From NCBI GenBank assembly GCA_963664225.1, contig OY760937.1, positions 4,320,001-4,384,000 of the forward strand: a DNA stretch of 64,000 bases, in the 5' to 3' direction. A model generated the notes under the pieces. It searched no databases and had not been told where the DNA came from. It saw only the letters and a list, made by a program, of their open reading frames with translations. This document shows positions 1,664-64,000 of the stretch, piece after piece. How positions within the stretch are numbered: the first letter of the stretch is position 1; every line of letters starts with the position of its first letter. The translations under genes and the position numbers were made by a program. Source of the stretch: Verrucomicrobiia bacterium. Lineage in GTDB: Bacteria; Verrucomicrobiota; Verrucomicrobiia; Limisphaerales; UBA1319.

Positions 1664-1795
1664 ATGTCACATCTAACCAAACAAGAAGTATGGGTGCTGG
1701 TCACCGTGCTGTCCCTGCTGCTGTTGGGGTTGGCGGTCAAGACCTACCGCCTCTCTCATCCACCGACGCCCAGCGGAATCGTGGCCAAACCATAG
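1664..1795 (+). CDS. Small 43-aa single-TM protein (not in the ORF track)
   Basis: MSHLTKQEVWVLVTVLSLLLLGLAVKTYRLSHPPTPSGIVAKP*; its TAG (1793-1795) abuts the next ATG at 1796. Confidence 0.55.
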   Translation: MSHLTKQEVWVLVTVLSLLLLGLAVKTYRLSHPPTPSGIVAKP

Positions 1796-2218
1796 ATGCC
1801 CATGGAAGAACTCAATTTCAACGAAGTGCTGGATAAGATTGTGGCTGCGGATCCGCGTTACCGTCGTGAGGCCTACGACTTTGTGAGGGAGGCATTGGAT
1901 TTCACCCAGAAGGTTGTGGCCCAAAGTGCAAAAGGCGCAAAACGGCATGTCAAAGGCCAGGAATTGCTGGCAGGCATACGCGATTTCGCCCTGGCCCAAT
2001 ATGGCCCGATGGCCCTGACCGTTCTTGAGGAATGGGGCATCCGCCGCTGCGAGGATTTTGGCGAGATTGTTTTTAATCTCATCGAGATCGGCATTCTGAG
2101 CAAAACCCCCGAAGACAGCAGGGACGATTTCAAAGATGGCTACGATTTCATCAAGGCCTTCAAGGAACCATTTTTACCCAGGGTTAAAATAACGACCCCT
2201 TCGAAGGGCGCGGAGTAA
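1796..2218 (+). CDS. Minf_1886-type (Verrucomicrobia/Planctomycetes-restricted) protein
   Basis: DPRYRREAYDFV, RHVKGQELL, YGPMALTVLEEWGI, DFGEIVFNL pattern, recognised by eye. Confidence 0.8.
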   Translation: MPMEELNFNEVLDKIVAADPRYRREAYDFVREALDFTQKVVAQSAKGAKRHVKGQELLAGIRDFALAQYGPMALTVLEEWGIRRCEDFGEIVFNLIEIGILSKTPEDSRDDFKDGYDFIKAFKEPFLPRVKITTPSKGAE

Positions 2219-2236
2219 ATTTTCATCGGAGATCGT

Positions 2237-3505: not shown

Positions 3506-3563
3506 AAATCCGGGAAATTACTGGACCCAAAAGCGCAGTCTGGACTATTACTGAGTCACAGAC

Positions 3564-4982
3564 ATGAACACAGAAGCGCTTTACCAGGAACGCCTCAACC
3601 GGTATCTCACGGCCATGAGGAACGAAAAGCCGGATCGCATTCCCATCCGCCCATTCGTCGCCGAGTTTACAGCCAAATACGCGGGGTATTCCTGCCAGGA
3701 GGTTGTTCATGATTATGAAAAGGCCTTTTCGGCGGCGCGTAAATGCGCGGCGGATTACGATTGGGATGCCGTGGTTTCCAACATGGTGTATGTGTGGACC
3801 GGCCTTTCGCAGGCCATTGGCCTTCGCTATTATGGAATTCCGGGCATCGGTGTGCCGCCCAACATGGGATTCCAATACATCGAACCGCCCGAGGACAAGG
3901 CGTTCATGCGACCCGACGAGTATGATCATCTGATCGACGATCCCACCGATTTTCTCTTCAACGTCTGGCTGCCCCGTGTTTCCACGGAGGTCTGCGGCAT
4001 TGGCGAGCCCTCCACCTACCGCAACAACCTGTCGTTCCTCAAAGGCGGCATGGCGATGATGTCCTATTTCAACGCCTTTGGCCGGCAGAATGCCTTGTTG
4101 CGTTCAGAGTCGGGAACGGTTTCTGCAATTGCGGGAATCTTCAAGGCGCCCTTTGACATTATCGCGGACAAGATGCGCGGGTATGTGGGGTTGACGATGG
4201 ATATGTTCGAGCGGCCCGAAAAGGTTCTCGCCGCCTGCGAGGCGCTCATGCCCCATTTGTTGAATGTGGCCATGACGAGCGCTGATCCCGCCAGACAGGT
4301 GCCGATTGGTTACTGGATGCACCGGGGCTGTGTTCCCTTCGTTTCGCGCAAGACTTTCGACACGCATTACTGGCCAACGGTCAAGCCGATCATCGAGGAG
4401 CTTTGGAAGAACGGTCATCAAACCCTTTTCTATTCTGAAGGTGACTGGACGTCGCATCTGGACAGCTTCGCCGAATTGCCGGATTGCAGCATTGTGTATC
4501 ATGTGGACCGGGGAGATATCTTCAAAACCCACCAAAAGCTCGGTCACAAGTTCTGCCTGAGCGGCGGAATTCCCAACATGTTGTTAAGTTACGGGAAACC
4601 GGACGAGGTGCGCGATTACTGCAGGAAGGTCATCGACGGCGTGGCCGCGGACGGAGGCTACATCATGGACGCATCGGCAATCATGCAGAATGACACCAGC
4701 ATTGAAAACCTGCGCGCGATGACAGAATTCACCCGCGAATACGGGGTGTATTCGGACGGACGCTCGCGATCGTTGGCGCCTGCACCGACCACGCTTCCAC
4801 AGGGGATTGGTATGCCCCACACGGCGAACACGAAGAAGCAGCCCGGCGTCTGTATGCCCTGGGAGGAAAAGTGCAGGGAACTGCCCGAGATCACGGGTGA
4901 CCGGGAATTGATGCGGCGCATCTGGCAGGACATCGACAGCCTGGGCAATATGTATATCTGGCAGGTCTTGCTGAGTTTTTGA
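3564..4982 (+). CDS. Uroporphyrinogen decarboxylase / MtaA-like family protein
   Basis: N-terminal KPDRIP, PEKVLAACE, CLSGGIP, GKPDEVRDYCRKVID and GGYIMD, typical of the URO-D TIM barrel. Confidence 0.8.
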   Translation: MNTEALYQERLNRYLTAMRNEKPDRIPIRPFVAEFTAKYAGYSCQEVVHDYEKAFSAARKCAADYDWDAVVSNMVYVWTGLSQAIGLRYYGIPGIGVPPNMGFQYIEPPEDKAFMRPDEYDHLIDDPTDFLFNVWLPRVSTEVCGIGEPSTYRNNLSFLKGGMAMMSYFNAFGRQNALLRSESGTVSAIAGIFKAPFDIIADKMRGYVGLTMDMFERPEKVLAACEALMPHLLNVAMTSADPARQVPIGYWMHRGCVPFVSRKTFDTHYWPTVKPIIEELWKNGHQTLFYSEGDWTSHLDSFAELPDCSIVYHVDRGDIFKTHQKLGHKFCLSGGIPNMLLSYGKPDEVRDYCRKVIDGVAADGGYIMDASAIMQNDTSIENLRAMTEFTREYGVYSDGRSRSLAPAPTTLPQGIGMPHTANTKKQPGVCMPWEEKCRELPEITGDRELMRRIWQDIDSLGNMYIWQVLLSF

Positions 4983-5107
4983 GGGACTGATGCGGTTATT
5001 GGAGAGGGCGAACGACGCAACTGTGTGTGTGCACAATGTCGCGCCTGTCGTGCGGTAACTGGCGCCTGATGGTTCCGGCGAAGCGGGATCAGCCGGTTTC
5101 GACCACG

Positions 5108-5539
5108 TCAGAATCCAAGCTCCACTTTCAGCGCAACCAACGACACGTTCAGGTCCTGGAGAAAGTACAACAACGAAGCTATCAGGGAAACCAGGCACGC
5201 CACGAATAAAACCGCTGCAAGGGTTACAACCTCCACCCGCAAAAATGCGGCGAGAAACAAGGCGATCACAAGGAGCGCAGCCATGAGGACGCTCACGGCG
5301 GCAAAAGCCACCGCTGCCCGAAGCAATCGCGCGCGCCGGAAAAGGATATGGAGCTGAGATTCCATGCGAGCCCGCTCAGGCTCAGGCGCCTCACGCAGCG
5401 CCGCACCCATCTGACGGGACCGGTCCACCACTCTGCCAAAGCGATTGGTGATCGACAGAATCAACAATCCGACACCAGAAATGAGGATCACTGGACTGAC
5501 GGCCGCCTGTAGAATCGATAGTAATTCAGCAAATCGCAT
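5108..5539 (-). CDS. DUF2721-like membrane protein
   Basis: LQAAVSPVILISGVGLLILSITNRFGRVVDRSR; three hydrophobic segments; start placed at MRFAELL. Confidence 0.8.
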   Translation of the reverse strand: MRFAELLSILQAAVSPVILISGVGLLILSITNRFGRVVDRSRQMGAALREAPEPERARMESQLHILFRRARLLRAAVAFAAVSVLMAALLVIALFLAAFLRVEVVTLAAVLFVACLVSLIASLLYFLQDLNVSLVALKVELGF

Positions 5540-5893
5540 ATAGAAAAGCCTGCCGGGCACCCTGCCGCCCATTTTGCCAACACAAAGCACTGACCCAGCT
5601 TATACAATACACGGGTTGCCTGAATATTTCCAGTTGAACCCGAAATCCGAAATAAGAAATACGAATGGTCAAGACGATGCAATGCTTTGAGACAGCCATG
5701 ATTTGCAATCGGCGAAGGTGTATTAAACCAATACTCCACAGCCGGTTTCAAACCATGGATGGCCAAATGATTGCGTCAGATGGGCCGTTCCTATTTCGGG
5801 TTGAAGGCACGTCGTCCCGGATTTGCCGCGTCGCCAGCGAAAGCCATTGACTTGAGCGGGTGCTGCCAATATCAATTTGAAAAACCCTGAGCT

Positions 5894-6910
5894 ATGATCA
5901 TTGTCGAATCCTATCCTATTGCTGTGGCGATGTGCGTCATTACCATGTTGTGCTGGGGTTCCTGGGCCAATACCCAGAAACTGGCCACGAAGGAATGGCG
6001 ATTTCAATTGTTTTACTGGGACTATGCCATCGGCGTGTTTTTGCTGTCGCTGATCCTGGCCTTTACGATGGGCAGCACGGGCGCGGGAGGGCGGGGATTT
6101 CTGGCGGATTTGCAGCAGGCCGATATCCATTGGTTGGGATCGGCATTCCTGGGCGGGGTGATCTTCAATCTGTCGAACATTCTTCTGGTGGCCGCCATTG
6201 ATATTGCGGGAATGGCCGTGGCTTTTCCGGTGGGGGTGGGGTTGGCGCTGGCGCTGGGGGTGATCACGACTTATGTGGCCAAACCCGAGGGCAATTCAAC
6301 CATGCTGGCGGCGGGTGTGGCGGCGGTGGCCGTTGCCATTGTTCTGGACGCGCTGGCTTATAAGAAGCTTGCCTCCGGCAGTCAAAAGACGCCGTTTAAA
6401 GGCATCGCACTGTCGGTCGTGGCGGGCGTTCTCATGGGTTTCTTCTATAGTTTTGTGGCCAATTCGATGGGGAAGTTGACGCCGAATGGCGGTGCAATGC
6501 TGTTGGAAGCCCACAAGCTGAGTCCTTATACGGCGATCGTCGTGTTTTCAACCGGATTGCTCCTCTCGAATGTTCTGTGGAACAGCCTGGTGATGGTAAA
6601 ACCGTTCTCGGGGCCGCCGGTACCTTTCGGTGACTATTTTTCAAAGGGCAGCCTTCGCCTCCACGCGATTGGAATTCTGGGTGGCATGATTTGGAACCTG
6701 GGCATGTCCTTTAGCATCATCGCCTCCACAGCGGCGGGCGCGGCGCTTTCCTACGGGCTGGGGCAGGGGGCGACCATGATCGGAGCCTTCTGGGGAGTCT
6801 TCATTTGGAAGGAATTCAAGGGCGCGCCTGCGGGCACGAACAAGCTCCTCGGCGCCATGTTTGTGTTTTACCTGGTGGGTCTTGCCATTTTGATCAGCTC
6901 GAAGTTGTGA
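5894..6910 (+). CDS. GRP/ureide-permease-like DMT sugar transporter, probably ribose uptake
   Basis: [36 protein letters not shown]; about 10 TM segments; directly upstream of ribokinase. Confidence 0.85.
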
Positions 6911-6951
6911 TCCGTCCAAAAGTGTCTAAAGATTCGAACATCGCATTGCGT

Positions 6952-7869
6952 ATGGCTAACAAACAAATCGTCGTCGTCGGCAGTTCCAACACGGACATGA
7001 TCATCAAGCTGGATCGCATACCGCGACCCGGCGAAACGATTCTGGGCGGCGAATTTGTCATGGCCGCCGGAGGCAAGGGCGCGAACCAGGCGGTCGCGGC
7101 GGCACGGGCGGGCGGTGCGGTTACGCTCGTGGCCAAGGTGGGCGGAGACGTTTTTGGCGCGCAAGCCGTGGAAGGGTTTAAGAAGGACAAGATCGACGTC
7201 CAATACGTGTTCAAAGACAGGCAGGCCCCCTCGGGTGTGGCTTTGATCTTTGTGGCCAAAGACGGCGAAAACAGCATTGCGGTGGCCTCCGGTTCCAACG
7301 GGCGGTTAATGCCCGGAGACTTGAAGAAGGCCAAAGCCGCGATTTCCAGCGCGTCCACATTGGTGATGCAATTGGAAACGCCGTTGGAGACAGTTCGCAC
7401 CGCCGCGGAAATCGCCGCGAAGAAAGGTGTGCGTGTGATCTTGAATCCCGCACCCGCGCGGAAACTCGATGACGCCCTTTTAAAGTTAATCACCATCATC
7501 ACCCCCAACGAGACCGAGGCCGAACTGCTCACTGGCATTCCTGTCAAAGATGAGGCGGGGGCGTCCAAAGCCGCCGCTGCGCTTCTGGCCAAAGGGGTGC
7601 AAACGGTCATCATCACGCTGGGAGCGCGTGGCGCTTTTGTCGCTTCCAGCGAGTTCTATCAGATGGTGACGGGATTCAAGGTCAAACCCGTGGATACCAC
7701 CGCGGCAGGCGATGTCTTTAACGGCGCGCTCGCTGTGGCCCTGACCCAAGGGATGCCGATGCTCGAAGCAGTGCGCTTTGCCAATGCCGCCGGGGCGTTA
7801 TCCACCACCAAATTGGGCGCGCAACCCTCGGCGCCCAAGCGTGGCGAGATTCTCAAAATGCTGAAGTGA
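6952..7869 (+). CDS. rbsK: Ribokinase
   Basis: [47 protein letters not shown] (PfkB signatures); start at MANKQ. Confidence 0.95.
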
Positions 7870-7877
7870 TCGCCGTT

Positions 7878-9203
7878 TCAAACCCGGCGTTGTTTGACGG
7901 GTTTGTCGATCAAGTCGTGCAACACGGTTCCGAGCCGGGCGATGCCTCGGCGTATTTCCATGTCCGAGGCGCTTCCGAAGCTGATGCGCATTTCCGTGTC
8001 CGGGATGCGCCGCGTGGTGTCTTCCGCATAACATAACCGGCCGGGAATATAGAGCACATCCTGTTTTAATGCGGACTGGAACAACCGGCTTTCAGGCCCT
8101 GAAACCAATGGTTTTGGCAGGTTGGCCCAAATGTAGAGGCCGCCGCGCGGTTCCTGCCATTGCACTGTCGCCGGAAAAGTTTTGCGGATGGCCTCCACCA
8201 TGATCTGCGCCTTGGCCTCATAACGGCGGCGCAACACGACGAGGTGCTTTTCATACCGGCCCGAGGCAATTGCGCCGGCCAGGATCTGCTGAATGAGACT
8301 GGCAGTGCCGAAATCATGGTTGCCTTTGAGACGGTTCACCACGGTGAACAGCGGTTCGGGCAGCAGCCCGTAACCCGCGCGCACGCCGGTTGAAAATGGC
8401 TTGCTGAAGGTGCCGGTGTAGATGACGCGTTTGTTCAACTCCGGCACGGCAAGCGCCGAGGCGTCGTCCTTGCCCGCAAACCGCAGTTCCCGGTAAGCCG
8501 CGTCTTCCACAAGATAGATGGGGTGGCCTGCCGCGCGTTCGTAACTCCGCAGAAGTTTCAGTGCGGCGACCTTGGTGCGGAACGGGGTGGAGATGCCGGT
8601 CGGGTTTTGAAAATAGCTGATCGTGTAGAGAAATTTAACCCGGGACAGTTCGCCGGAATTTTTGAGCGATTCGAGCACCGACTTCAACTGGTCGAGGTCC
8701 AGACCTTCGGGCGTCATGCGAACTCCGCGGCAGCGCAATCCATGGGTTTGCACAATGCCGAGATAAACGAAATAAGTTGGATCCTCGACAAGGATGATGT
8801 CGCCTGGATTGCAGAGAGCCTCCGTCACCAGGTAGAGGAATTGCTGGGAGCCGTTGGTGATGATCGCCTGATCCGCCGAATAGCGTGTTTTGGCGGCGGA
8901 TCCCGTCTTGATTTTGGTGCCAGTCGCGGCGGCATCGGCCTGTGCGAGGCGTTCGATGGCGGCCTCGCGCAATTCCGGCAGACCGGCGGTGAATCCATAT
9001 TGCAGCGCGGAACGGGACTGGCGCCCGTTCTCGAGGCGTTCCCGAACAATTTCGATCACCTCGCGCGCAGGCAGTGTTTCATTGTCTGTAAAACCCGCCG
9101 CCAGGGAAATGAGCTGCGGCCGCTGCAAGGCCAGGCGCATTAACCATTCGATGGGCGGCGCATCGCAGCGCGCACCCAGCTCTGACAAACCCGATTTATT
9201 CAT
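7878..9203 (-). CDS. PLP-dependent class I aminotransferase (2-aminoadipate/MocR-like)
   Basis: ALQYG, ITNGSQQ, VEDPTY, FQNPTG, EDAAY, GTFSK, GGLYIW. Confidence 0.88.
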   Translation of the reverse strand: MNKSGLSELGARCDAPPIEWLMRLALQRPQLISLAAGFTDNETLPAREVIEIVRERLENGRQSRSALQYGFTAGLPELREAAIERLAQADAAATGTKIKTGSAAKTRYSADQAIITNGSQQFLYLVTEALCNPGDIILVEDPTYFVYLGIVQTHGLRCRGVRMTPEGLDLDQLKSVLESLKNSGELSRVKFLYTISYFQNPTGISTPFRTKVAALKLLRSYERAAGHPIYLVEDAAYRELRFAGKDDASALAVPELNKRVIYTGTFSKPFSTGVRAGYGLLPEPLFTVVNRLKGNHDFGTASLIQQILAGAIASGRYEKHLVVLRRRYEAKAQIMVEAIRKTFPATVQWQEPRGGLYIWANLPKPLVSGPESRLFQSALKQDVLYIPGRLCYAEDTTRRIPDTEMRISFGSASDMEIRRGIARLGTVLHDLIDKPVKQRRV

Positions 9204-9271
9204 GTCCGGACACCACTAAAGCCTTCCGGCGCGGGTCTGTCGAGCACGGGAAGGATGCCCGGGAGTTCCGC

Positions 9272-11323
9272 CTATTTTGCAGATTCCATTTTTTTGAGGG
9301 CTTCGGCTGAGGCTTGCGGATGTTGCGCCTTGATATCGTTGGCGATTTTCTTCACCGCCAGAGCCGCCTCGGCGCGAACGCCCGGGATGTCCAGGAGAGG
9401 CAGCGCGATCTCCAGGGCTTCGGGTTGCGCGGCCACGGTCAGGGCGCTGAGGACCAGTTTGCGTTCGTCATCGGTGCGAACCCCCGCGAGGATCATTCGG
9501 TAGTGCTCAAAGAGCGCCGGGCTGGGATGGGCGTTTTCCTCGGCCACAAGTCGCACGAGCCCGCGCAGTGCCAGGGTTCGCTGCGAATCGTCCGACGGCT
9601 TTTGATAGAAGCCGACCAGCGCATTCCAGGCTGTGGCATCGGGCCAAGCGGCGATGGCCTCAATGGCGGTGTTACGAATCTGCGGTTGCGCATCCTGAGA
9701 CGCCTTCTGCAGTGCGGCAAAAGCCGTCTGATCCCCGCAGACGGGCAATAAGCGAATCAGGGAACAACGGGTGGCCACAACGGTGTTGGCATCCAGCGCG
9801 GCGCACACGGCTTGCGTGCGTTTGGCGGCATCGGGAGTTTTTTGCAGGATTTGCATCGCCGCGTTCTCCGCGGCCGGGCGCGTATCGTCGGCATGCAACT
9901 GGACCAATGCGTTGATTACTGCGGTCAAATTCTCCGGCTCAGCGGTTTTCTCCAGTCCTTGAAATGCTGCACGGGCGATGATGGCATTGGTTGAGGAGGA
10001 TTCCTCCAATAGGACGGGAACCGCCAGGTGACTGCGGCGTCGGGCCAGCGCGGAAATCAAGGTCGGCTTGGCCGTGCTGATGGCTTTGCGCAGTTCTCCA
10101 ATGATGGAGCGTGTGGCGGTGTCCCCACCGGGCAGACTCGCAATTGCCTGCTCCAAGGCCTGACGCTCCTGTGGACTGGCCTGATTGGCCAGGGCAGTGG
10201 TGAGCAGTGGCAGCACGGAGGAATCACCATACTGTCCCATGGCCGTGATGGCCGCCAGACGCGGTCCGGGTTCCGTCGAGGCAATTTGCCGACCCACGGC
10301 GCGCAGTGAGGGCAAATCCCCTCGTTGTGCAAGGGCCTGGATCATCAGGACCTGATCCTCGGGATTCAATTTGGGCAATTCACTCGCAAAGGCATCGGAC
10401 GCCTCGGCATTGGTAACCGCAGGCACGGCAGCGATCGCTGTCGGGACAAGCCGGGGATCGGCTCCGCGCAAAGAGCGTAATATTCTTTCCTGGCCGCCGT
10501 CCTTGTCCAAGCGGAATAGTGCGATCAACGCTCCGCGCCGGACATGCAGGGGTTGGGACGTGCCCATCAACCCTTCGTAGAGGGATCGGGCGGCATCGGT
10601 CTGGCCTGCGGCGGCAATCTGCGCGGCCTTTCTCAGAAAGGCTTCTGCAACGGCCAGGGACAATTCGGACTTCGATGATTTGCGGATGGAATACAAGGCG
10701 TTGATGGCGTCGTCTCCCGGGATTTTCCCCAATGCCACCACGGCCGCTCCAGCCACGACCATGTCAGCATCCTCCGCGAGATCTTTCAATGCAGTCACGG
10801 AGGCGGTGTCCTGCATGTCTCCGAGTGTGGAGATGATTTGCAGCCGTGCCGCGCCTGTGGATGTCGGCAAGGCCTTGCGAAGGACTTCCCCGGCTTTGGT
10901 CGATGGATGGGACGCCAGGGCCAGGCACGCAATACCAACGGTGTCGTTGTTGCCGAGCAATGTTGCGATGGCCTCCAGCGAAGTATCCGTGCCGATCACC
11001 GCCAGTTGACCGCACACGAAGCGCTTGGCTTCAATGGAGGCCGGGCTTGCGATGAACTTGTCCAGGGAGTTTTCAATCGAAGCCAGTGCGGCAGAGTCGC
11101 CAACGGATTGGCGCACCAGTGTCTCGATCTGGCGCAAGGCGTCCATCGAATCGCCCGATTGGTATTGCGCGGCTTTCGCCAGGGCATCGTTGATGGAGCC
11201 TGGTCCGTTGAACGGAATCGAGAATGCGACGGCCACCATGCAAAGTGCGGGTGCCATCAGTTTGCAGAGCGTTGCGCGCAGGACAGGCATCGTCAAATTG
11301 CGGGTAAAGGATTTAAAATTCAT
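9272..11323 (-). CDS. Secreted HEAT-repeat protein
   Basis: Hydrophobic N-terminus and repeated Ala/Leu-rich helical pairs (AAVVALGKI, AAITAMGQYG). Start uncertain; the track gives 11395. Confidence 0.8.
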   Translation of the reverse strand: MNFKSFTRNLTMPVLRATLCKLMAPALCMVAVAFSIPFNGPGSINDALAKAAQYQSGDSMDALRQIETLVRQSVGDSAALASIENSLDKFIASPASIEAKRFVCGQLAVIGTDTSLEAIATLLGNNDTVGIACLALASHPSTKAGEVLRKALPTSTGAARLQIISTLGDMQDTASVTALKDLAEDADMVVAGAAVVALGKIPGDDAINALYSIRKSSKSELSLAVAEAFLRKAAQIAAAGQTDAARSLYEGLMGTSQPLHVRRGALIALFRLDKDGGQERILRSLRGADPRLVPTAIAAVPAVTNAEASDAFASELPKLNPEDQVLMIQALAQRGDLPSLRAVGRQIASTEPGPRLAAITAMGQYGDSSVLPLLTTALANQASPQERQALEQAIASLPGGDTATRSIIGELRKAISTAKPTLISALARRRSHLAVPVLLEESSSTNAIIARAAFQGLEKTAEPENLTAVINALVQLHADDTRPAAENAAMQILQKTPDAAKRTQAVCAALDANTVVATRCSLIRLLPVCGDQTAFAALQKASQDAQPQIRNTAIEAIAAWPDATAWNALVGFYQKPSDDSQRTLALRGLVRLVAEENAHPSPALFEHYRMILAGVRTDDERKLVLSALTVAAQPEALEIALPLLDIPGVRAEAALAVKKIANDIKAQHPQASAEALKKMESAK

Positions 11324-11382
11324 AACACCTTTTTGCAAAAATCTGGGTTGGTAATGTTTATGATCGGTTCCAGTCGTGGAGT

Positions 11383-12681
11383 TCAGACACGCCACGGTGC
11401 GCGCGGTTCCCGCCAGAGCATGCCGTTGGCCGTTTCGGAATCAAAACGCTCCGCCACTGGGTCCCATTGCAGCTTGAGGCCGAGGCGCAGCGCGATGTTC
11501 CAGGCCTGGCAGATGGTGACGGCCCGGTGCGCGACTTCGGGATGGCACTGGGCCAGCGTGCGGGAGCGGATGGAATCGAGCAAATTGCGGATGTGCGATC
11601 CGGCATTGGCCCAACTCGCGCCGCCGGGCTGCCTCAGGCTGACGATGGATTTGGGTTCTGCGGTGACGACATCGGTCTCGTCGTCCACCTGGATCCAGCC
11701 TTCATCGCCGATGTAGCGGATATAGCGATCCGTGAATCCGGCCCGTTGAAACATGACGCCCTTGACGCCGTTGGCGTATTTGCAAACCGCCTCGGCCGTC
11801 AGCGGGGTGTCGCTCGCGAATTTGGTGGGATCGGGAAACTCGCCCTTGGCTTCAAAGGAAACGGGCCCGGTGTCGTCGGTGCCCAGCAGCCATTGCATCT
11901 GGTCGGTGTAATGACAGCCCATATCGGTGATCATGCCTTCCGCGGTGTCGTAAAAATATTGCCAGCCATTCACGCGGGAGGGGACAAACGGCTGCCATGG
12001 AACCTGACCGAGCCACATGTCATAATTCCAACCTTGCGGCGGCGGCACGGATTTTTCGATGGGGATGCCTGTTCCGGTCCACACCTGCATTTCCACCGTG
12101 TGCAGGCGTCCGATTTTGCCCTGATGCACCATATTCCGGGCGAACTGGTAGGATTCCGTGTCGCGGCGCTGCGTGCCCGCCTGATAGATCGTGCCGAACC
12201 GCTGGCAGGTTTGCACCAGATTGCGGCCTTCACGGATGGTGAGGGAGACGGGTTTTTCGCAGTAAATATCCTTGCCGGCGCGCGCGGCGAACATCGAGGC
12301 CATGGCATGCCAGCGGTTGCCCGTGGCAATCAAGACCGCGTCGATGTCTTTTTGGCCTAGCAGATCCCGGAACTCGGGATAAGTGCGGCAATCCTTGGTC
12401 TGGTAGTGCGCGTTGACGTAATCCCTGGCGGCGAGCATCCGGTCCTCACGACAATCCGAAATCGCGACCCACTGGATTTCCTTGAAGCCTAGAAAATTGG
12501 GCATGATATCCCGCGCACGATTGCCCGCGCCGATCAGGCCAAAGGTGACACGGTTGCTGGGAGCGGGGCGACCGTCCAGGCCAAGGGCCGAGGCCGGGAT
12601 GAAGGTGGGCAGTGCGGCAGCGAGGGCCGCGCCTTTTAGAAATTGCCGCCGGTTGATGGGCTTTGAGTTCATATTTCTCAT
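11383..12681 (-). CDS. Tat-exported Gfo/Idh/MocA oxidoreductase
   Basis: NRRQFLK Tat motif, GLIGAGNR, DAVLIAT, DIYCEKP, QAGTQRR, DMGCH. Confidence 0.92.
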   Translation of the reverse strand: MRNMNSKPINRRQFLKGAALAAALPTFIPASALGLDGRPAPSNRVTFGLIGAGNRARDIMPNFLGFKEIQWVAISDCREDRMLAARDYVNAHYQTKDCRTYPEFRDLLGQKDIDAVLIATGNRWHAMASMFAARAGKDIYCEKPVSLTIREGRNLVQTCQRFGTIYQAGTQRRDTESYQFARNMVHQGKIGRLHTVEMQVWTGTGIPIEKSVPPPQGWNYDMWLGQVPWQPFVPSRVNGWQYFYDTAEGMITDMGCHYTDQMQWLLGTDDTGPVSFEAKGEFPDPTKFASDTPLTAEAVCKYANGVKGVMFQRAGFTDRYIRYIGDEGWIQVDDETDVVTAEPKSIVSLRQPGGASWANAGSHIRNLLDSIRSRTLAQCHPEVAHRAVTICQAWNIALRLGLKLQWDPVAERFDSETANGMLWREPRAPWRV

Positions 12682-12831
12682 GGATCCTCCGACTCGGGTT
12701 TTTAAATGGAATCGCGTGTGGCTGAATTTGACATCAGACGGTCAAAACGGTCAAGTGACGAACCGATCTGAAGAACAATTCTTCCCATTATGAGTTTGCC
12801 TTCTTGCATGGTTTATTGGCATAAGCTCATC

Positions 12832-14304
12832 ATGAATTCCTTATTAAATTCAGCATTCACGGCGCGAGGATTTGCCATGGCAATGTTGGTCGCCCTCTTT
12901 TGTTTATCCAGCAGCCGCGGTAATGCAATCCCCCTGCCTGAACTCTCCAAGGAATCCAGGATGTGCATCGATTGCCATGCGAACGAAACGCGCGGCATTT
13001 ACCAGGAGTGGGGGACCTCCAAACATTTTCGCGGCAATGTGGGTTGCTATGAATGCCACCAGTCGGAGGCAGGCAAGCCCGGCGCGATGGATCACAACGG
13101 ATTCACCATCAGCATCATTGTATCGCCCAAGGACTGCTCCCGCTGCCATCCAACGGAGGTCCGGCAATTCAGCGAAAGTCACCATGCCAAGGCGGCTGAA
13201 ATCCTGGGATCGCTGGACAATTACCTCGCGGACATCGTCGAGGGGGACACGAATTTTCATGGAATGTCCGCTCTAAGCGTGAGTGGTTGCGCGCAGTGCC
13301 ATGGTAGTGTGGTGCAGGCCAACAAGGACGGTTCCCTCAAATCAACCGACTGGCCGAACACGGGAGTGGGCCGCATCAATCCGGATGGCAGCATCGGCGC
13401 GTGCAGCGCCTGCCACCTGCGACACGCATTTTCCGCCGAGCAGGCGCGTCAGCCTGAAAATTGCACGCGCTGTCACCAGGGCCCGGACCATCCACAGAAG
13501 GAAATCTTTGAGGAATCCAAACATGGCATCGCCTATGCCGCGCATAAAAAGGATCTAAAGCTCGATAACGCCAAATGGGTTTTGGGTGAAGATTACACGG
13601 CGGCCCCAACCTGCGCCACCTGCCACATGTCCGCCGTCAAACCGAAAGATGGCGACATCATGCCTGTTAATCACAATGTCGGGTTGCGCATCAGTTGGAA
13701 TAACCGGCCCCAGACATCCATTCGCCCGGAGGTTGCAGACGCCAAACTGGGTCTGGAGAAAATGGCGAAGATGGAATGGAAAACACGCCGCGCTGAAATG
13801 GTCAAGGTTTGCACGGTTTGTCACGCGAGCGGTCAGGTCAATAATTTCTACGAGCAGTATGACGGGGTGGTCGACCTCTACAATTCCAAATTCGGCCAGC
13901 CCGGTGTGAATTTCATGAAACTCCTGTCCGAGAATAAACTCATCACGGATACACAATTTGACGAACCGATCGAGTGGACCTGGTATGAATTGTGGCATCA
14001 TGAAGGACGGCGTGCCCGACATGGCGCCTCGATGATGGGGCCGGATTTCACGCACTGGCACGGCCTTTACGAGGTGGGCAAGCATTGGTACACCGAGTTC
14101 ATTCCGCAGCTTCGGGAAATCTCCGCAAAGAATCTCCACTCCGATGATCCCGCGAAGGTGGAAGGCGCAAAGAAACTGGACACCGCCATCAACGAGCTTC
14201 TGGCCAGACCAGAGCATCGCTGGTTTACCGGGAAAATGTCGTCGGAAGACCTGGAAAAACGCAGGAAAGCCCAGGAAGAATTCAAGCAGCGGTATTCAAA
14301 ATAG
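12832..14304 (+). CDS. Octaheme cytochrome c of the hydroxylamine oxidoreductase family
   Basis: Signal peptide; eight CxxCH motifs (CIDCH, CYECH, CSRCH, CAQCH, CSACH, CTRCH, CATCH, CTVCH); GPDHPQKEIFEESKHG and LWHHEGRRARHGASMMGPDFTHWHG. Confidence 0.88.
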   Translation: MNSLLNSAFTARGFAMAMLVALFCLSSSRGNAIPLPELSKESRMCIDCHANETRGIYQEWGTSKHFRGNVGCYECHQSEAGKPGAMDHNGFTISIIVSPKDCSRCHPTEVRQFSESHHAKAAEILGSLDNYLADIVEGDTNFHGMSALSVSGCAQCHGSVVQANKDGSLKSTDWPNTGVGRINPDGSIGACSACHLRHAFSAEQARQPENCTRCHQGPDHPQKEIFEESKHGIAYAAHKKDLKLDNAKWVLGEDYTAAPTCATCHMSAVKPKDGDIMPVNHNVGLRISWNNRPQTSIRPEVADAKLGLEKMAKMEWKTRRAEMVKVCTVCHASGQVNNFYEQYDGVVDLYNSKFGQPGVNFMKLLSENKLITDTQFDEPIEWTWYELWHHEGRRARHGASMMGPDFTHWHGLYEVGKHWYTEFIPQLREISAKNLHSDDPAKVEGAKKLDTAINELLARPEHRWFTGKMSSEDLEKRRKAQEEFKQRYSK

Positions 14305-14642
14305 TCCGCAGGCGTCGCACGACAAATTACTTAAGAAAGTCCAAAAAGGCTTTAAACGCCATGGAGGTGTGTCCGGGGCTTTGTCATTGTAGCCGGGTGC
14401 CCCCACCCGGCGTCCCCGGCCCGGTGTATCGCAATCAAAAGCTCCATGGCAGACATTGGTTTGCGACCACCGTGACGTTCGTGGTAGGGCGTGCAGTCCT
14501 CTGCGCGCCGTTGGGGGTAACACATTGCAGGCCCGGGCGTCCCCGGCCCGGTGTATCGCAATCAAAAGCTCCATGGCAGACATTGGTTTGCGACCACTGA
14601 GGTTGCTTCGATTTGACGGACACAGGAGCGGAGCGAAACTTA

Positions 14643-14996
14643 ATGAAAAACCGTATGAAGCAATCTGTGATTCCCGATTCCAAGACTCATCCGAAGTATG
14701 ATTCTGCATTTAAGCAGGAAGCCGTGAACCTCTGGAAATCCAGCGGGAAATCGGCAGCCACGGTGGCGGCTGAGTTGGGGATAAAAATGGAGCGGCTCTA
14801 TGCCTGGCGCGCAAAATATGTGCCGCTGCCAACAGGGGAAGGAGCCGAAACAAAGACCCGTGAGCAGTTGCTGGCCGACAATGCCGCTTTGTTGCGCGAA
14901 CTGGACTATGTGCGCCAGCAGCGGGAGATTCTAAAAAAAACGTTGGGAATTCTTTCGGACCCCCAGAGCAACGCTATCAACGGGTTGAAGCGATGA
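14643..14996 (+). CDS. IS3 OrfA (HTH)
   Basis: KYDSAFKQEAV...VAAELGI...LYAWR and EILKK; A8 slippery run at 14933-14940 suits a -1 frameshift. Confidence 0.9.
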   Translation: MKNRMKQSVIPDSKTHPKYDSAFKQEAVNLWKSSGKSAATVAAELGIKMERLYAWRAKYVPLPTGEGAETKTREQLLADNAALLRELDYVRQQREILKKTLGILSDPQSNAINGLKR

Positions 14997-15835
14997 AAGT
15001 CGATCATCCCATCCGCCTGCTCTGTGAGGCCTTTGATGTGTCTTTTAGCGGCTACTATGATTGGTGCCGACGGCAAATCCAGCCTTCGTTGCGTGCCCGT
15101 CAGGACGCCGTATTGAAAGGGACCATCACAACGATTTTCAATGGCAGCCGCAAAACCTATGGCAGCCCGCGCATCCAGATCGCCTTGAAGCACCAGGGGC
15201 ACTGCCATGGTCGCAACCACATCGCCCGTTTAATGCGCCAGGAAGGCCTGCAGGCGCGTTCTAAAAAGCGTTTCAAGGTCCGAACCACCGACAGCAATCA
15301 TGATCAGCCCATTGCCCCCAACCGGCTGGCTCAAGCCGCGCCACCGGACCAACGCAATCAGACTTGGGTCGGGGACATCACCTACATTGCCACCGATGAA
15401 GGCTGGCTCTATCTCGCTGGCATTGAAGACCTTTACAGCCGCCGCATCGTGGGTTGGGGCATGAGCGAGCACATTGACACCGAACTGGTCCTGTCGGCCT
15501 GGAACATGGCCTGCATTCAGCGGCAACCCGAACCCGGATTGCTCTTTCATTCAGACCGGGGAGTCCAGTATGCCAGTCAGGATTATCGCCGGGCGATGGA
15601 AACCTCCGGTGCCCTGGCGAGCATGAGCCGCAGTGGCAACTGCTATGACAACGCGGCCATGGAATCCTTTTGGAGCACCCTTAAACAAGAACTGGTTTAT
15701 CGCCGGGTCTTTGCGACCCGAGCCCAGGCCCGACAGGCCATCTTTGATTACATCGAGACCTTCTATAATCGACAGCGTTTACACAGCACACTCAATTACA
15801 TGTCTCCTGTTGACTTTGAAAATATATCCAAATAA
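14993..15835 (+). CDS. IS3 OrfB DDE transposase
   Basis: YGSPRI, WVGDITYI, DLYSRRIVGW, HSDRGVQY, GNCYDNAAMESFWSTLKQE, YNRQRLHSTL. Confidence 0.95.
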   Translation: MKVDHPIRLLCEAFDVSFSGYYDWCRRQIQPSLRARQDAVLKGTITTIFNGSRKTYGSPRIQIALKHQGHCHGRNHIARLMRQEGLQARSKKRFKVRTTDSNHDQPIAPNRLAQAAPPDQRNQTWVGDITYIATDEGWLYLAGIEDLYSRRIVGWGMSEHIDTELVLSAWNMACIQRQPEPGLLFHSDRGVQYASQDYRRAMETSGALASMSRSGNCYDNAAMESFWSTLKQELVYRRVFATRAQARQAIFDYIETFYNRQRLHSTLNYMSPVDFENISK

Positions 15836-59154: not shown

Positions 59155-60117
59155 ATGAATAAAGCATTCCAATTTACGTTCGCCTTCCTGTCGATGGCTC
59201 TCCTCGTCGCAACGACATCGGCCGCAGCGGCGGCGCATGTTCCCGCGAATTGTTATCTCTTTTCCTATTTCCTCGGCAACGGCGAGGATGGGCTTCATCT
59301 GGCGTGGAGTGCCGATGGCCTGAAATGGGAAGCGCTCAAGGATGGCAAATCTTTCCTCACACCCATGGTCGGAAAATCGAAACTGATGCGCGATCCCTGC
59401 ATCACCAGCGGACCAGATGGCACCTTTCACATGGTTTGGACCGATAGTTGGGACAGCACCACCATCGGCTACGCATCCTCCAGGGATCTCATCACATGGT
59501 CCGAGCAACAGTCCATTCCCGTGATGAAGGACGAGCCCACGACGAGAAACTGCTGGGCGCCCGAAATCATTTACGACGCGCCCATGAAACGCTTCATGAT
59601 CTTCTGGGCCTCCACAATTCCCGGCAGATTCCCGGCAACCGAGTTGGAGGGTAAAAACGACAATAACCATCGCATCTACGCGATGACCACGGAGGATTTC
59701 GTCAAGTTCACTCCGACAAAGCTCTTTTTCGATCCCGGATTCAACTGCATCGATTCGACGATCCTGCCTTTTAACGGCAAGGCGGTCATGTTCTTCAAGG
59801 ACGAAACCAAGTATCCAACCGCGATGAAAAACCTGCGGATCGCCACGGCACCTACGATCGCTGGCCCCTACGAGGTGGAAAAAACTCCGATCACCCCTCC
59901 GGGAAGCTGGGCGGAAGGTCCCAGCGCCCTAAAGGTCGGCAACGAAGTGATTCTCTATTACGATGCCTACACGCAGCATCACTATGCGGCGTTATCTTCC
60001 CGCGATTTGCATGAATGGAAGGACGTCACCAGGGAACTATCCATGCCCAAGGGCATCCGACACGGCACCGCCTTTGAGGTTCCGGGCCCAATAGTCAAAG
60101 AGCTTCTGAAAAAATGA
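59155..60117 (+). CDS. GH43-like glycoside hydrolase
   Basis: Signal peptide; GLHLAWSADG, MRDP, WAPE, IDST, EGP. Confidence 0.85.
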   Translation: MNKAFQFTFAFLSMALLVATTSAAAAAHVPANCYLFSYFLGNGEDGLHLAWSADGLKWEALKDGKSFLTPMVGKSKLMRDPCITSGPDGTFHMVWTDSWDSTTIGYASSRDLITWSEQQSIPVMKDEPTTRNCWAPEIIYDAPMKRFMIFWASTIPGRFPATELEGKNDNNHRIYAMTTEDFVKFTPTKLFFDPGFNCIDSTILPFNGKAVMFFKDETKYPTAMKNLRIATAPTIAGPYEVEKTPITPPGSWAEGPSALKVGNEVILYYDAYTQHHYAALSSRDLHEWKDVTRELSMPKGIRHGTAFEVPGPIVKELLKK

Positions 60118-60512
60118 TCCGATACCGGCGATTGGGAGTTTCTTGAATGCCGCGTCTGCACCATTGCTGCCACAGGACTCCGGAAGCGTTCTTTGGCTGG
60201 CACAGACTTGTGGAATTTGATCCATTTGGTAGTTTTGACACTTGTATCACAAGAGATCCTGCCTTAATTTTTTCGGCACAGCAGACACGGGATCGAATAT
60301 GAGTTGAACCTCATCCAAGTGCCCCTGTGAATGGAACTCGAACGATACCATTTCAGGAGGGTGGGGGTGGGCGCCATCAGTCGGGCCAGAATATTGATGA
60401 GGCGCAGTGAAGGTGTTTTCCGATCCGTTGCCTATTCTCACGACGGGTAGGGGATTAGCGGCTCTCACTCTTCGAGTTGGCATGTCGGGGAATACGGCTA
60501 TTTATATGAAAT

Positions 60513-63500
60513 ATGGCTAAACTCGAGACTGCGACGATGCCGGTCACCGGCATGTCCTGCGCCAATTGCGCGGGGAATATCGAGCGCAAGGTGCGCCAGT
60601 TGCCCGGCGTTGGCGAAGCTCGTGTGGATCTTGCCGGCGAAAAGCTTTCAATAACCTTTGACCCGGAACAGACGGATGTTCTGCGTGTCATCACCTGCGT
60701 TCGCGAACTGGGCTTCGGCGTTGCCACGGGCAGGACGGAACTGTTGATCGCTGGACTGCAGGGACGCGCCGATGCCGCGAACCTTTCAAAGCTGCTGGCC
60801 GAACAGCATGGGGTCGTAACCGCCAGCGTGAGCGGCGAAACCGGACGGGCCGCGCTGGAATTCATCCCCGGCATGACCGGCGTCGCCGAAATGGCGGGGG
60901 TGGTGCGTCAGGCGGGATTCGAACTTGTCCAAGACGGCAAGGCTGAAGATTTCGAAGACGTTGAGGCCAGGGCGCGCGCCGCCGAAATCATCCAGCAAAA
61001 GCGCCTGCTTCTCCTGGGCCTGATCTTAACGGTACCTCTGATCGCCTTCAGTATGGCGCGCGATTTTCGCCTGGTGGGATTTCCCCACGATCAATTCGCC
61101 ATGCTGATTCCGGCCACTCTGGTGCAGTTTGTCGTTGGATGGCAGTTCTACGTTGGCGCTTATCGCAGTCTGCGAGGGGGTGCGGCAAACATGGACGTTC
61201 TGATCGTGCTGGGATCCTCGGTCGCCTATTTTTCCAGTCTGGCCGTCACGGTCGGTCTGATCGCCAGCCCCAATGTCTATTTCGAGACCGGCGCGGCCAT
61301 CATCACGCTCATCCGGCTTGGAAAATTTCTGGAAACCCGCGCCAGAGGCAAAACCTCCGAAGCCCTGAAAGCCTTGATGGGTTTGCGGGCCAAAACCGCG
61401 CGGGTGGTTCGGAACGGTGCCGAAGTGGAGATCGGCATCGATGCCGTCTCGGTCGGCGATACCGTTGTTGTGCGCCCCGGTGAAAAAGTTCCTGTGGATG
61501 GCATCATTAGCGACGGTCGCTCGGCATTCGATGAGTCCATGATCACTGGGGAATCAATGCCCGTCAGTAAAGGTCCGGGCGATGAGGTGATTGGCGCGAC
61601 GCTCAACAGGGAAGGCATGATCCAGTTCGAGGCGACGAAGGTCGGGAGGAACACCGCGCTAGCCCGGATCGTGCAACTCGTGCAGGAGGCGCAGGCCGGC
61701 AAAGCGCCGATTCAAAAACTGACGGACGAGATTGGACGGTATTTCGTGCCCATCGTCATCGGCCTGGCGTTATTCACGTTCGTCGGCTGGGTCTGGGTCG
61801 CCCACATTGATTGGATGGGGGCCATGCTGAACGCGGTGGCGGTGGTCGTCATCGCCTGCCCCTGCGCGATCGGCCTGGCAACGCCGACCGCGATCCTGGT
61901 GGGCACGACCAAGGGCGCCGGGCACGGCATCCTCTTCAAAAACAGCGAGGCCTTGGAGCGCGCCGGGCGCGTGAGTGTCGTTTTGCTGGACAAAACCGGA
62001 ACGATTACAAGGGGCGAACCAGAAATGACCGATCTGGTCGCCGCGCCGCACCAGACCATGGACGAAGTTCTGCGCCTGGCCGCCAGTGCCGAACGGGGTT
62101 CCGAACATCCCCTGGGCCGCGTGATCGTGAAGGCTGGACAAGACAAAGGACTGCGCCTCATTGAGCCGAGGAATTTCCAGGCCCTCAGTGGTCTTGGCAT
62201 TCGCGCCACCGTGGGAGATTGCGAGGTCATCATTGGCAATCCACGTTTGATGCGCAACGAAGGCATTGGTCTTGAGGCGCTGGACGAAGATGTCACGCGG
62301 CTCCAAGCCGAAGGTAAGACTGCGATGATCGTGGCGGTGGCCACGACGGGGCGCACGGAGGCCGCGAGGGCGATCGGGGTGGTGGCGGTGGCCGACACGG
62401 TCAAGCCGGGTTCGAAGGAGGCCATTGAGGAGTTGCGCCGGTTGGGCCTCGATGTGGTGATGATCACGGGCGACAACCAGCGCACTGCCGAAGCGATTGC
62501 CAGAGAGGTCGGCATCAAGCGGGTGCTGGCGGAAGTACTGCCCGGAGACAAGGCCGCCGAGGTCAGGAAACTACAATCCGCCGACTCGACGGCCGGCCTG
62601 TCCCGCCCCCTTGTAGCCATGGTGGGCGACGGCATCAACGACGCCCCGGCGCTGGCGCAGGCTGATGTCGGCATTGCCATCGGCACCGGGACGGATGTGG
62701 CCATCGCCGCTGCGGGCATCACGCTGATGAGCGGGGACCTGCGCGGGGTGGGGCGCGCCATTTCGTTGTCGCGCGGCACTCTGGAAACGATCGTGCAGAA
62801 CCTGATCTGGGCTTTCTGTTACAATGTCGCCTTGATTCCCATTGCCGGCTACGGGTTGCTCAGCCCGATGATTGCCGCGGGCGCCATGGCGTTCAGCTCC
62901 ATTTTCGTCGTCACCAACAGCCTGCGTCTGCGCGGCTACAAGGTTCAAACCTTCGCCGCGCCCAAGCCGCTATGGCGGCAGGGCGTTGAGTTGATTCCCC
63001 GCATCCTGGCCCCGGCAGGCGCGCTGGCCATCCTGATCGTCCTGCCCATGGTGACCATGGCGGAAGGGGTGGAAATCCGGGGAGCGATTCCCGGGACCAT
63101 GACTCCACTATTGATGATGACGATGGCGCTTGCGAACGGCGTGATCTCGATCTCCTATTCCTCCATTCCGGTTTTCCTGATCATTTTCATCAGAAAGCGG
63201 AAGGACATCCCGTTTTCGTGGATTTTGGTCATGTTCGGGGCTTTTATTCTGGCCTGTGGCACCACCCATGTCGTTCATATCGTTGGTCTCTGGTGGCCGG
63301 TGGATTGGTGGCAGGCTGCAGTCGATGCCTTTTGTGCCATCATTTCCGTTACGACCGCGATCCTGGTCTGGCCATTATTGCCAAAATTGCTGGCGATTCC
63401 CAGCCCCGCCCAACTGCGTGCGGTCAACCTCGAACTGCAAAACGAGAAAGCGGTCTTGGAGCGCACGCAGAGCGAGTTGCGCAAGGCCTACGCCGAGGTG

Positions 63501-64000
63501 GAGCAGCGCGTGACGGAACGTACCGCAGACCTGGCGCGCGCCAACGCGTCCCTGCAGGCGGAAATCAAGGAGCGCCACCAGGTGGAGGAGAAACTCCGTC
63601 AGGGGAATGCCCAACTCGCCACCGCCGAGGTCGTGGCCCGGATGGGGAGTTGGCAATTGGACCTGGCGTCCGGAAGGGCCAGTTGGTCGGACAACATGTT
63701 CGCGATTTTCGATGTTGACCCGGCGCATTCCGAAGTCACCCAACTAAACTCCTTTCTCGAAACTCTCGTTCATCCCGACGACCGCGAGCGTATGTTGCGG
63801 TCCCTGGAAACGGCGCTGGCTGGCGGCCCGGCTTACGATCTGGAATTTCGCACGCGGCTGCACACGGGGGTGGAACGGATCATTCACGCCCGCGCGGAAA
63901 TCGAACGGGACCCGGCGGGCCGACCGCAGCGGTTGATCGGCATTGTGCAGGACATCACCGAGAGCAAGCAGATCGAGGCGGCCCTGCGTGCGAGCGAGGA
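60513..64000 (+). CDS. Cu(I) P1B-1 ATPase fused to an ethylene-receptor-like TM domain, coiled coil and PAS/PAC; 3'-truncated by the window
   Basis: Translated by hand, no stop in 1162 codons. GMSCANC, TGES, CPC (61857-61865), DKTGT (61989), [24 protein letters not shown], then SYSSIP...[12 protein letters not shown] (C at 63255, H at 63267), [14 protein letters not shown]...VHPDD...GIVQDIT. Confidence 0.92.

Follow-up and report, generated by a model that had tools for sequence, protein, structure and literature searches.

The window studied here is a stretch of 64,000 nucleotides from a Verrucomicrobiia bacterium (positions 4320001-4384000 of a single 5.78 Mb contig). Near its 3′ end begins a gene which encodes, in one chain, a copper-transporting P-type ATPase of the P1B-1 subgroup, an ethylene-binding-type domain (EBD) related to the one found in ETR1, an ethylene receptor of plants, and the catalytic domains of a histidine kinase. 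The product is predicted to be a 12-helix membrane protein in which a Cu(I) export pump is joined to a Cu(I)-dependent sensor kinase; taken as a whole, this reading stands, in our judgement, at an even chance. The component families are known, and their covalent combination, together with the EBD subclass that accompanies it, is undescribed in the literature searched.

The frame is stop-free over 60513..64000 (1162 codons) and open at the 3′ window end. Genome sequence beyond the window carries it to a stop at window-equivalent position 65129, giving a single open frame of 1538 amino acids (aa) from the ATG at 60513, a start codon which agrees with the N-terminus of the family consensus. Positions beyond the window were taken from an 18 kb segment fetched across the window end (L002, whose coordinates are window coordinates minus 58000). 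An original prediction, made from the letters of the window, had described the uninterrupted frame and expected a histidine kinase past the window end; both were borne out, the kinase as HisKA (residues 1312-1376) and HATPase_c (1419-1537). Pfam also identifies E1-E2_ATPase at 291-470, Hydrolase at 488-718 and, in the segment for which an EBD had been proposed, ETR1_N (PF25487) at 867-962, which scores 104 bits where the cut-off is 27 (E 5e-30) and spans model positions 2-97 of 97. This is the only PF25487 match in the window's genome. The coiled coil and PAS domain foreseen behind the EBD appear as a long helix (965-1009) in an AlphaFold2 (AF2) model and as a PAS_3 match (1057-1145). The complete layout is given in the table below.

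The fusion is not an assembly artefact. Logan contigs from two public studies (runs X1 and X2, one study possibly being the source of the assembly) were placed on 60400-64000. They cover 60400-62645 and 62627-64000 in X1, and 60400-62645 and 62625-64000 in X2; all four match the window with zero differences. The pump-EBD junction (about 62933-63110) lies well within one contig in both runs, and the contiguity on which the original prediction depended is thus confirmed, with neither a stop nor a chimeric join. The sole contig break, at 62616-62657, is the stretch coding for GDGIND, with a depth of 900-14000. Short-read contigs of four runs break or pile up there. Since the words in this stretch are common to many paralogous P-type ATPases, the break and the jump in depth reflect a repeat effect and no misjoin.

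Nor is the fusion confined to this genome. A scan of species-representative genomes gave 17 loci, and pump and EBD share one frame in all 15 which include enough upstream DNA (frames of 1231-1874 aa, starting about 790 codons upstream of the match); in the remaining two a contig end cuts the sequence short. Even a metagenome scan which took unfused relatives as seeds gave 21 loci with EBD and pump in one frame. Among the best 120 database matches to residues 700-1010, all contain PF25487 and nearly all contain ATPase families, and identity over the junction is 69-86% between phyla.

The Cu(I)-type motifs of the pump half lie where the original prediction had placed them: CxxC at C16/C19, TGES at residue 345 (nt 61545-61556), CPC at 449 (61857-61865), DKTGT at 493 (61989-62003), HP at 532, GDGIND at 705 (62625-62642), YN at 770 (62820-62825) and MxxSS at 792 (62886-62900). 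CPC in M4, YN in M5 and MxxSS in M6 are marks which we take to define subgroup 1B-1 of the Arguello classification. The NCBIfam model for copper P1B-1 pumps, TIGR01511, scores 568 bits (cut-off 397) and TIGR01525 scores 615 (cut-off 346), whereas the E. coli CopA equivalog model NF007952 reaches 545 bits against a cut-off of 1316, so that the fused pump is no equivalog of E. coli CopA. In 120 fused relatives, for which DKTGT (120/120) belonged to the definition of "fused", YN, MxxSS and GDGxND are present in all, CPC in 118 and HP in 117; TGES is found in 108 and SGES in five more, and the N-terminal CxxC in about 110, the other 10 rows being gapped at that site. As the motifs are kept across these relatives, the protein is probably under selection as a Cu(I) pump. 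They show the pump half to be an intact, predicted Cu(I)-type P1B-1 ATPase with every catalytic and Cu(I)-selectivity motif.

Solved CopA structures share the same motifs and align over the same region (3j09 from Archaeoglobus, 581 bits over 186-809; 3rfu from Legionella, 513 bits over 156-807). Both stop at about query residue 807-811, 3j09 aligning to residue 714 of 723 and 3rfu to 732 of 736, in accordance with the earlier remark that CopA proteins normally end at NSLRLR (residues 802-807, nt 62916-62933). Their chains end 4-9 residues past the last helix, whereas the fused protein runs 730 residues further.

Stand-alone pumps of 811-843 aa reach 76% identity to the fused pump; many of these relatives stop inside the tether motif which follows M6, and a few retain the additional, ninth helix described below. 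A FastTree phylogeny was calculated from 230 pump cores, of which 113 are fused, 114 are stand-alone and three are paralogues from the window's genome that served as outgroup (seven fused, six stand-alone and two paralogous rows had been dropped for incomplete coverage). Every fused pump falls into one clade of 155 rows (local support 100) in which 42 stand-alone pumps are nested, while the 72 other stand-alone pumps lie outside. The fused state changes 19 times on this tree, and at least 14 of these changes are forced by well-supported branches. Some rows counted as stand-alone are clearly truncated copies. With FastTree and outgroup rooting, the tree tentatively fits a single fusion origin followed by repeated loss or truncation.

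All 17 genome loci come from metagenome-assembled genomes (MAGs). The taxa given in the genome titles are Syntrophobacter, Desulfuromonadales, Geobacter, "delta proteobacterium", Bryobacteraceae, Acidobacteriota, Holophagales/Holophagaceae, Bacteroidetes/Bacteroidales/Rikenellaceae and Anaeromyxobacteraceae; at the phylum level, the MAGs with a named lineage are Acidobacteriota, Bacteroidota, Desulfobacterota-type and Myxococcota. In the window's phylum an EBD was found in 25 of 401 sampled genomes, with a frame longer than 1200 aa in the window's genome alone. In its order 21 of 201 genomes match, and only the window's genome and one other (G423; frame of 1508 aa, 67% identity including the linker) have the fused type. 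With this query, one same-genus genome (93% complete) and two same-family genomes gave no match. With so few carriers in the order and none among these near kin, the gene is patchy and accessory. Searched against 1.84 billion cluster representatives, the linker and EBD gave 6838 matches at E<=0.001, 3920 at <=1e-10 and 36 at <=1e-30, and about 25 of the best representatives match the linker too. Where the databases name the fused proteins at all, it is only as "heavy metal translocating P-type ATPase" or "Cu+-exporting ATPase".

This patchiness, with two carriers in 201 genomes of the order and none in the three close relatives searched, and a fused state for which the pump tree requires no fewer than 14 changes, is what might be expected if the fusion were fortuitous or decaying, without coupling between its halves, or if it were an artefact of assembly or annotation. 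We nevertheless hold this to be very improbable and close to refuted: the single frame recurs in 15 of 15 genome loci and 21 metagenome loci, junction identity is high between phyla (69-86%), the linker is free of gaps in 120 members, residues specific to the fused form are invariant, and contigs of two studies span 62625-64000 without a difference.

The EBD itself departs from the plant type in a consistent manner. EBDs were found in 241 database proteins, and the 197 near-complete ones were aligned (132 fused or truncated-fused and 65 unfused; 44 partial ones were left out). ETR1 numbering equals window-protein numbering minus 850 through helix 2, and the spacing Y882-I885-P886-I912-C915-H919 exactly mirrors Y32-I35-P36-I62-C65-H69, with C915/H919 in the place of the copper ligands Cys65/His69. 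D25, Y32, I35, P36, I62, C65 and H69 are said, in work attributed to Wang in 2006, to be needed for ethylene binding in ETR1. Judged by this list, six of the seven are kept in the fused members and position 25 differs: Y32, I62 and H69, as well as T68, are present in 132/132 fused EBDs, and I35, P36 and C65 in 131/132. The requirement for seven residues is also given in PMC6682694, and five of them are named in PMC6586836.

At the position of Asp25, all 132 fused EBDs have Asn (N875) and, at the helix-3 position which carries a conserved Lys in unfused proteins (Lys91), all 132 have Asp (D938). In the 65 unfused EBDs, Asp pairs with Lys in 51 of 52 cases and Asn with Asp in 12 of 13. The polar pair at 25/91 is thus retained by alignment, with a different chemistry. 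Asp25/Lys91 are a strongly co-evolving pair which forms a polar bridge, carries the signal to helix 3 and matters for high-affinity binding (PMC10266040). This bridge is absent from the fused EBD, where the pair is Asn875/Asp938. In ETR1, Asp25Asn shows minimal copper binding in vitro and no detectable ethylene binding in yeast at 0.21 uL/L, and is nonetheless a working receptor in planta, while non-basic Lys91 mutants retain 1-6% of wild-type ethylene binding; Asn occurs at position 25 in 3.67% of 1221 EBDs (PMC10266040). The loss of affinity caused by Asp25Asn is about 100-fold (PMC11971883). Since every fused member has Asn25/Asp91, ethylene binding cannot be assumed. The interpretation offered by the original prediction is therefore partly supported: its structural parts hold, and an ETR1-type domain is present with its PF25487 match and Cys/His ligands, yet the domain is no plain ETR1-like EBD.

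Further residues separate the Asn/Asp class from the Asp/Lys class. Met863 and Met869 each occupy the place of a Trp, Met868 that of Ile/Val/Leu and Met871 that of His; His922 stands for Ser/Ala/Gly, Gln934 for Glu/Asp and Cys941 (in 120/144) for Thr. By helix position, the Met cluster and His922 would lie near the periplasmic ends of EBD helices 1 and 2, above a mid-membrane C915/H919, and M849 closes the ninth helix on the same side. The four-Met signature (863/868/869/871) is found only in fused members or in contig-cut or start-truncated fragments of them, while His922 also occurs in most unfused Asn/Asp-class members. An independent metagenome sample of 80 loci gave a similar picture. All 21 fused loci are Asn/Asp with His922, 17 of them with the four Met and four lacking the first Met alone; 52 of the 59 unfused loci are Asp/Lys and seven are Asn/Asp, two of the latter being truncated at a contig end. 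Asn/Asp members which are truly unfused, with a length of about 600 aa, begin with a leading helix of their own and possess a periplasmic loop rich in Met. No open reading frame (ORF) for a P1B pump was found beside the unfused EBDs of the 59 metagenome loci, in flanks of up to 8 kb and with many short contigs; pump and EBD were seen coupled solely as a fusion, without split-gene intermediates in those flanks. By residue pattern, the fused members carry a distinct EBD subclass representing an alternative state of the coupled 25/91 pair.

The unfused Asp/Lys-class EBDs have features of their own: Cys at ETR1 position 10 (51/51), Trp at 13 (51/51) and His at 21 (38/51), none of which is found in the fused class. 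For cyanobacterial receptors PMC6682694 mentions one N-terminal cysteine which serves dimerisation, and Cys10 may be this residue.

The stretch which joins the two halves is equally well defined. Residues 810-870 are ungapped in the 120 fused relatives and include four invariant positions, P834, L838, P845 and M849. The AF2 model of residues 1-1010 (55-row alignment, mean predicted local distance difference test (pLDDT) 69.9, predicted template modelling score 0.49), used for helix boundaries only, places M5 at 744-779, M6 at 785-808, a ninth helix at 820-848, the EBD helices at 865-895, 902-927 and 931-952, and a long helix at 965-1009. P1B pumps end in the cytoplasm, and the first helix of ETR1 begins on the far side of the membrane; exactly one extra helix is therefore needed to join them in the right orientation. 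Basic stretches lie in the tether behind M6 and in the RKRKD loop which links the first two EBD helices; both fit a cytoplasmic location by the positive-inside rule. Helix count and charge distribution together support a topology in which the extra helix would place the EBD in the orientation which it has in ETR1. A docking prediction of the pump core (150-812) against linker and EBD (813-965), run without controls, scored 0.00 and is read as neutral. A sequence search of the PDB returned no solved chain for residues 812-1040 and no EBD structure of any kind. One relative, P0267 (792 aa, cut by a contig end), has a last pump helix which runs straight into the coiled coil, without the ninth helix and EBD (about 820-963), and looks like a natural deletion variant.

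On the output side the histidine kinase is complete, with the H-box histidine in HisKA followed by HATPase_c, and a CheY-like receiver gene lies directly behind. Receivers orthologous to this one (94-322 bits) follow the fused gene immediately in 15 of 39 fused loci, and in two further loci they lie at a distance of about 1.7 kb. With the window's receiver as query, internal receivers could be detected in four fused proteins, and others have precomputed PF00072 matches. Other neighbours at fused loci include hybrid kinases, a GGDEF-EAL regulator, a sigma-54 activator and PAS-rich kinases. Among 108 neighbouring ORFs at 16 genome loci, no OmpR-type DNA-binding domain and no recurrent copper-resistance gene was found, the latter occurring as single cases only (L012 and L027). 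Judged by gene content, the output wiring looks like signalling and not like copper homeostasis.

Two main accounts of the joint function are inferred, loading in cis and the reporting of copper flux. The first, which could fall either way, holds that the pump supplies a gas or alkene sensor with Cu(I) in cis. It would take Cu(I) from the cytoplasm and release it at the periplasmic face, where the Met/His set (M849, M863, M868, M869, M871 and H922) would catch it and lead it to C915/H919 inside the membrane. The copper-loaded EBD would then bind some small molecule, unsaturated or a pi-acceptor, for which ethylene is the first candidate, and ligand binding would alter kinase output to the receiver and on into a phosphorelay. 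The Asn875/Asp938 site may be weaker than the plant site, or otherwise tuned, and a dedicated copper feed would help. More specifically, it is conceivable, although we give it clearly less than an even chance, that the pump hands Cu(I) directly to the EBD at the outer membrane face and that the domain with its Asn/Asp pair, four Met and extra His is a distinct class of copper-based gas/alkene sensor. The named carrier lineages include mostly anaerobic taxa of sediments and soils, and anoxic, sulfidic habitats hold little free copper, which favours a gas or alkene ligand; in sediments and soils, ethylene from anaerobic metabolism or waterlogged roots is far above the levels to which plants respond. 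Such a ligand is also favoured because six of the seven binding residues are kept, because the output wiring resembles behavioural signalling, because a covalent copper feed suits a weaker Asn-type site, and because all EBD proteins tested in the works consulted bind ethylene (PMC11819568, PMC6682694, PMC10266040). A copper feed to a weak site is plausible since ETR1 Asp25Asn binds little copper and yet works in planta (PMC10266040).

Several observations weigh against loading of a gas sensor by the pump. With Asp25 replaced by Asn and Lys91 by Asp, ethylene may bind poorly or not at all. AF2 confidence over the EBD is low (pLDDT 45-59), and the path from the Met/His set to Cys/His therefore follows from helix positions and not from a trusted three-dimensional model. 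The additional Met and His residues are just as characteristic of Cu(I)-sensing or Cu(I)-trafficking proteins. On the pump side, a comparison of fused pumps with the nested stand-alone pumps found no residues setting them apart, so that the pump half is without sign of specialising as a cofactor loader, and the 42 stand-alone pumps nested among fused ones on the ATPase tree point the same way. Finally, no P1B-1 pump over the family cut-off was found in the carrier genome G403 other than the fused gene, which must therefore serve ordinary export there too. The window's genome differs: it has at least three other canonical CopA genes, which score 602-621 bits on TIGR01511, above the fused pump, which is therefore unneeded for bulk export. 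Among five other carrier genomes, four hold further P1B-1 pumps over the cut-off.

The same observations bear on the second account, which we consider possible though somewhat doubtful: the EBD-type domain would be a sensor of copper flux or of periplasmic Cu(I), in which occupancy of a labile site, and no gas, sets kinase output. The site would fill only during export by the pump or at high periplasmic Cu(I), and the protein would then report its own transport in the manner of flux-sensing pairs of transporter and kinase. The class-specific changes in the EBD are copper-philic (four Met, His922, and Cys941 in 120/144), and the minimal copper binding of ETR1 Asp25Asn in vitro suggests a weak, reversible site (PMC10266040). 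The unfused Asn/Asp members, with their leading helix and Met-rich periplasmic loop, are built as a periplasmic Cu(I) sensor might be; the pump half belongs to an ordinary exporter clade with many stand-alone members, and in G403 no P1B-1 pump besides the fused one was found. However, neither copper-homeostasis genes nor OmpR-type copper regulators recur at the 16 genome loci whose neighbours were scanned, the partners being a CheY-like receiver, hybrid kinases and PAS-rich proteins. Moreover, six of the seven ETR1 ethylene-binding residues (of the list given above), and Thr68, are under strong selection, and the EBD proteins tested all bind ethylene (PMC11819568, PMC6682694, PMC10266040).

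Coupling in the reverse direction, with the sensor or kinase gating copper export in response to a ligand or PAS input and kinase output being secondary, is in our view improbable. The halves are covalently joined through an ungapped, conserved tether and ninth helix, and the PAS domains could supply redox or oxygen signals; yet the conservation of a full kinase and of an orthologous receiver points to outward signalling, stand-alone pumps of the same clade work without a sensor, and nothing in the data favours gating.

Among known systems the closest parallel to loading in cis is that of Arabidopsis RAN1 (HMA7) and ETR1, which belong to the same two families, with the pump on the cytoplasmic side and the receptor site in the membrane, facing the other side. 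Plant ethylene receptors obtain copper mainly from RAN1, and RAN1 and the receptors interact physically (PMC6656775). These are two proteins in plants, whereas the fused gene encodes one chain with an extra helix. ETR1 shares the Cys/His copper ligands and a histidine-kinase-type output; it differs in its Asp25/Lys91 pair, for which the fused EBD has Asn/Asp, the Met cluster and the extra His, in its GAF domain, whose place is taken by PAS domains, and in its N-terminal disulfide cysteines, none of which is present in the fused, bacterial protein. SynEtr1 (Synechocystis slr1212) and AzoEtr1 (Azospirillum brasilense) likewise lead from an EBD through PAS or other sensor domains to a histidine kinase with a response regulator nearby, and control surface behaviour and biofilm (PMC11819568, PMC6682694). 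Unlike the fused protein, they have an N-terminal EBD and no pump, and AzoEtr1 is 525 aa long compared with 1538 aa. The unfused bacterial EBDs aligned here are mostly Asp/Lys (51/65 in the database set and 52/59 in the metagenome set). CbrA-type kinases with an SSS domain and BceAB-BceS likewise unite transporter and histidine kinase for sensing, but their transporters are secondary or of the ABC type, and what they sense is the substrate that is carried. A fusion of a P-type ATPase with a kinase is not known to us, nor one with a cofactor-bearing gas-receptor domain as its sensor. The original prediction knew of no described protein of such architecture, and none appears in the literature searched, although such proteins are numerous in databases as P-type ATPases; full-text searches found no description of a pump-EBD fusion, and surveys of bacterial EBD architectures and supplements outside those searches could mention one.

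The copper supply of the ethylene receptor and the structure of its site are long-standing questions in plant hormone biology, where genetics shows that RAN1 is required and interaction assays suggest direct contact. A widespread family with pump and EBD in one chain would provide independent evolutionary evidence that both work as a unit, to which the conserved joining helix and Met/His set lend support, and it offers a target for bacterial expression in studies of structure and loading. If direct hand-over is true, the family would be a "Rosetta stone", the first tractable pump:receptor system in fixed 1:1 stoichiometry, and a route to how an ethylene-binding site is built and loaded; if the protein reports flux, it would be the first P-type ATPase known to us with an activity sensor of its own. 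The co-varying Asn/Asp pair extends the published co-evolution of Asp25/Lys91 and represents a natural experiment on the tuning of copper and ligand affinity.

Table. Features of the fused gene and the adjacent receiver gene, in window coordinates unless indicated.
Feature	Position	Strand	Evidence
Fused pump-EBD-kinase gene	60513..64000, to 65129 (L002 2513-7129)	+	Translation
HMA metal-binding domain, CxxC at C16/C19, residues 9-68	60537..60716	+	Pfam PF00403, E 2e-14
Putative second ferredoxin-like (HMA-like) fold without cysteines, residues 73-133	60729..60911	+	Beta-alpha-beta-beta-alpha-beta in AF2 model; no Pfam match, weaker part
P1B-1 ATPase core, residues 147-808: MA, MB, M1-M6, A/P/N domains	60951..62936	+	Profiles, motifs, AF2, solved CopAs
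Short basic cytoplasmic tether behind M6, residues 809-819	62937..62969	+	Conserved without gaps in 120 fused relatives
Ninth membrane helix, residues 820-848, predicted to bring the chain back to the periplasmic side	62970..63056	+	AF2 helix; topology inferred
Met-rich periplasmic turn, residues 849-864 (M849, M863)	63057..63104	+	Alignments of fused relatives
Ethylene-binding-type domain, helices 865-895/902-927/931-952	63105..63398	+	PF25487, residue tables, AF2 helices (pLDDT 45-59)
EBD key residues N875, Y882, I885, P886, I912, C915, T918, H919, H922, D938, M868, M869, M871	within 63105..63398	+	
Coiled-coil signalling helix, residues 965-1040	63405..63632	+	AF2 helix 965-1009 (model ends at 1010); weak DUF4200 match 974-1037
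First PAS domain, residues 1057-1145	63681..63947	+	Pfam PAS_3
Second PAS domain, residues 1163-1278	beyond window	+	Pfam
HisKA, residues 1312-1376	beyond window	+	Pfam
HATPase_c, residues 1419-1537	beyond window	+	Pfam
Stand-alone receiver gene, 148 aa	L002 7143-7589 (window-equivalent 65143-65589)	+	Starts 14 nt past fused-gene stop

A scan of 60050-60600 found no promoter or terminator. The other neighbours of the gene in its own genome are glycoside-hydrolase-like and BNR-repeat genes without a link to copper. Elsewhere in the window's genome, about 17.5 kb before the window, lies a P1B-like match (C1:4300797-4302533, minus strand) whose 340 bits on TIGR01511 stay below the cut-off. The open frame around it is unusually long, with 964 aa, and may carry an extra domain.

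Candidate copper-related neighbours at other loci are few. In L012 a gene of 407 aa with DsbD_2 membrane and cupredoxin-like domains (4136-5359, plus strand) lies 11 nt upstream of the fused gene; among 16 genome loci this is the one case seen of a copper-related neighbour adjoining a fused gene. In L027, from Anaeromyxobacteraceae, a CusB/HlyD-type fusion protein and an AcrB/CusA-type RND pump are encoded downstream (9421-10956 and 11771-15052, plus strand). Three loci of Acidobacteriota/Holophagales (L022 10626-13493, L025 6772-9639 and L028 2302-5175, all minus strand) share a kinase of 955-957 aa with five PAS repeats, which is oriented convergently to the fused gene; apparent large proteins of no known kind downstream in these loci were rejected as spurious antisense frames of this multi-PAS kinase. 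The genome which contains L022 (G405, Acidobacteriota) has two pump matches, C393:80554-82341 and C300:43357-45150, in frames of 1309 and 1660 aa, and some carriers may thus hold two fused paralogues.

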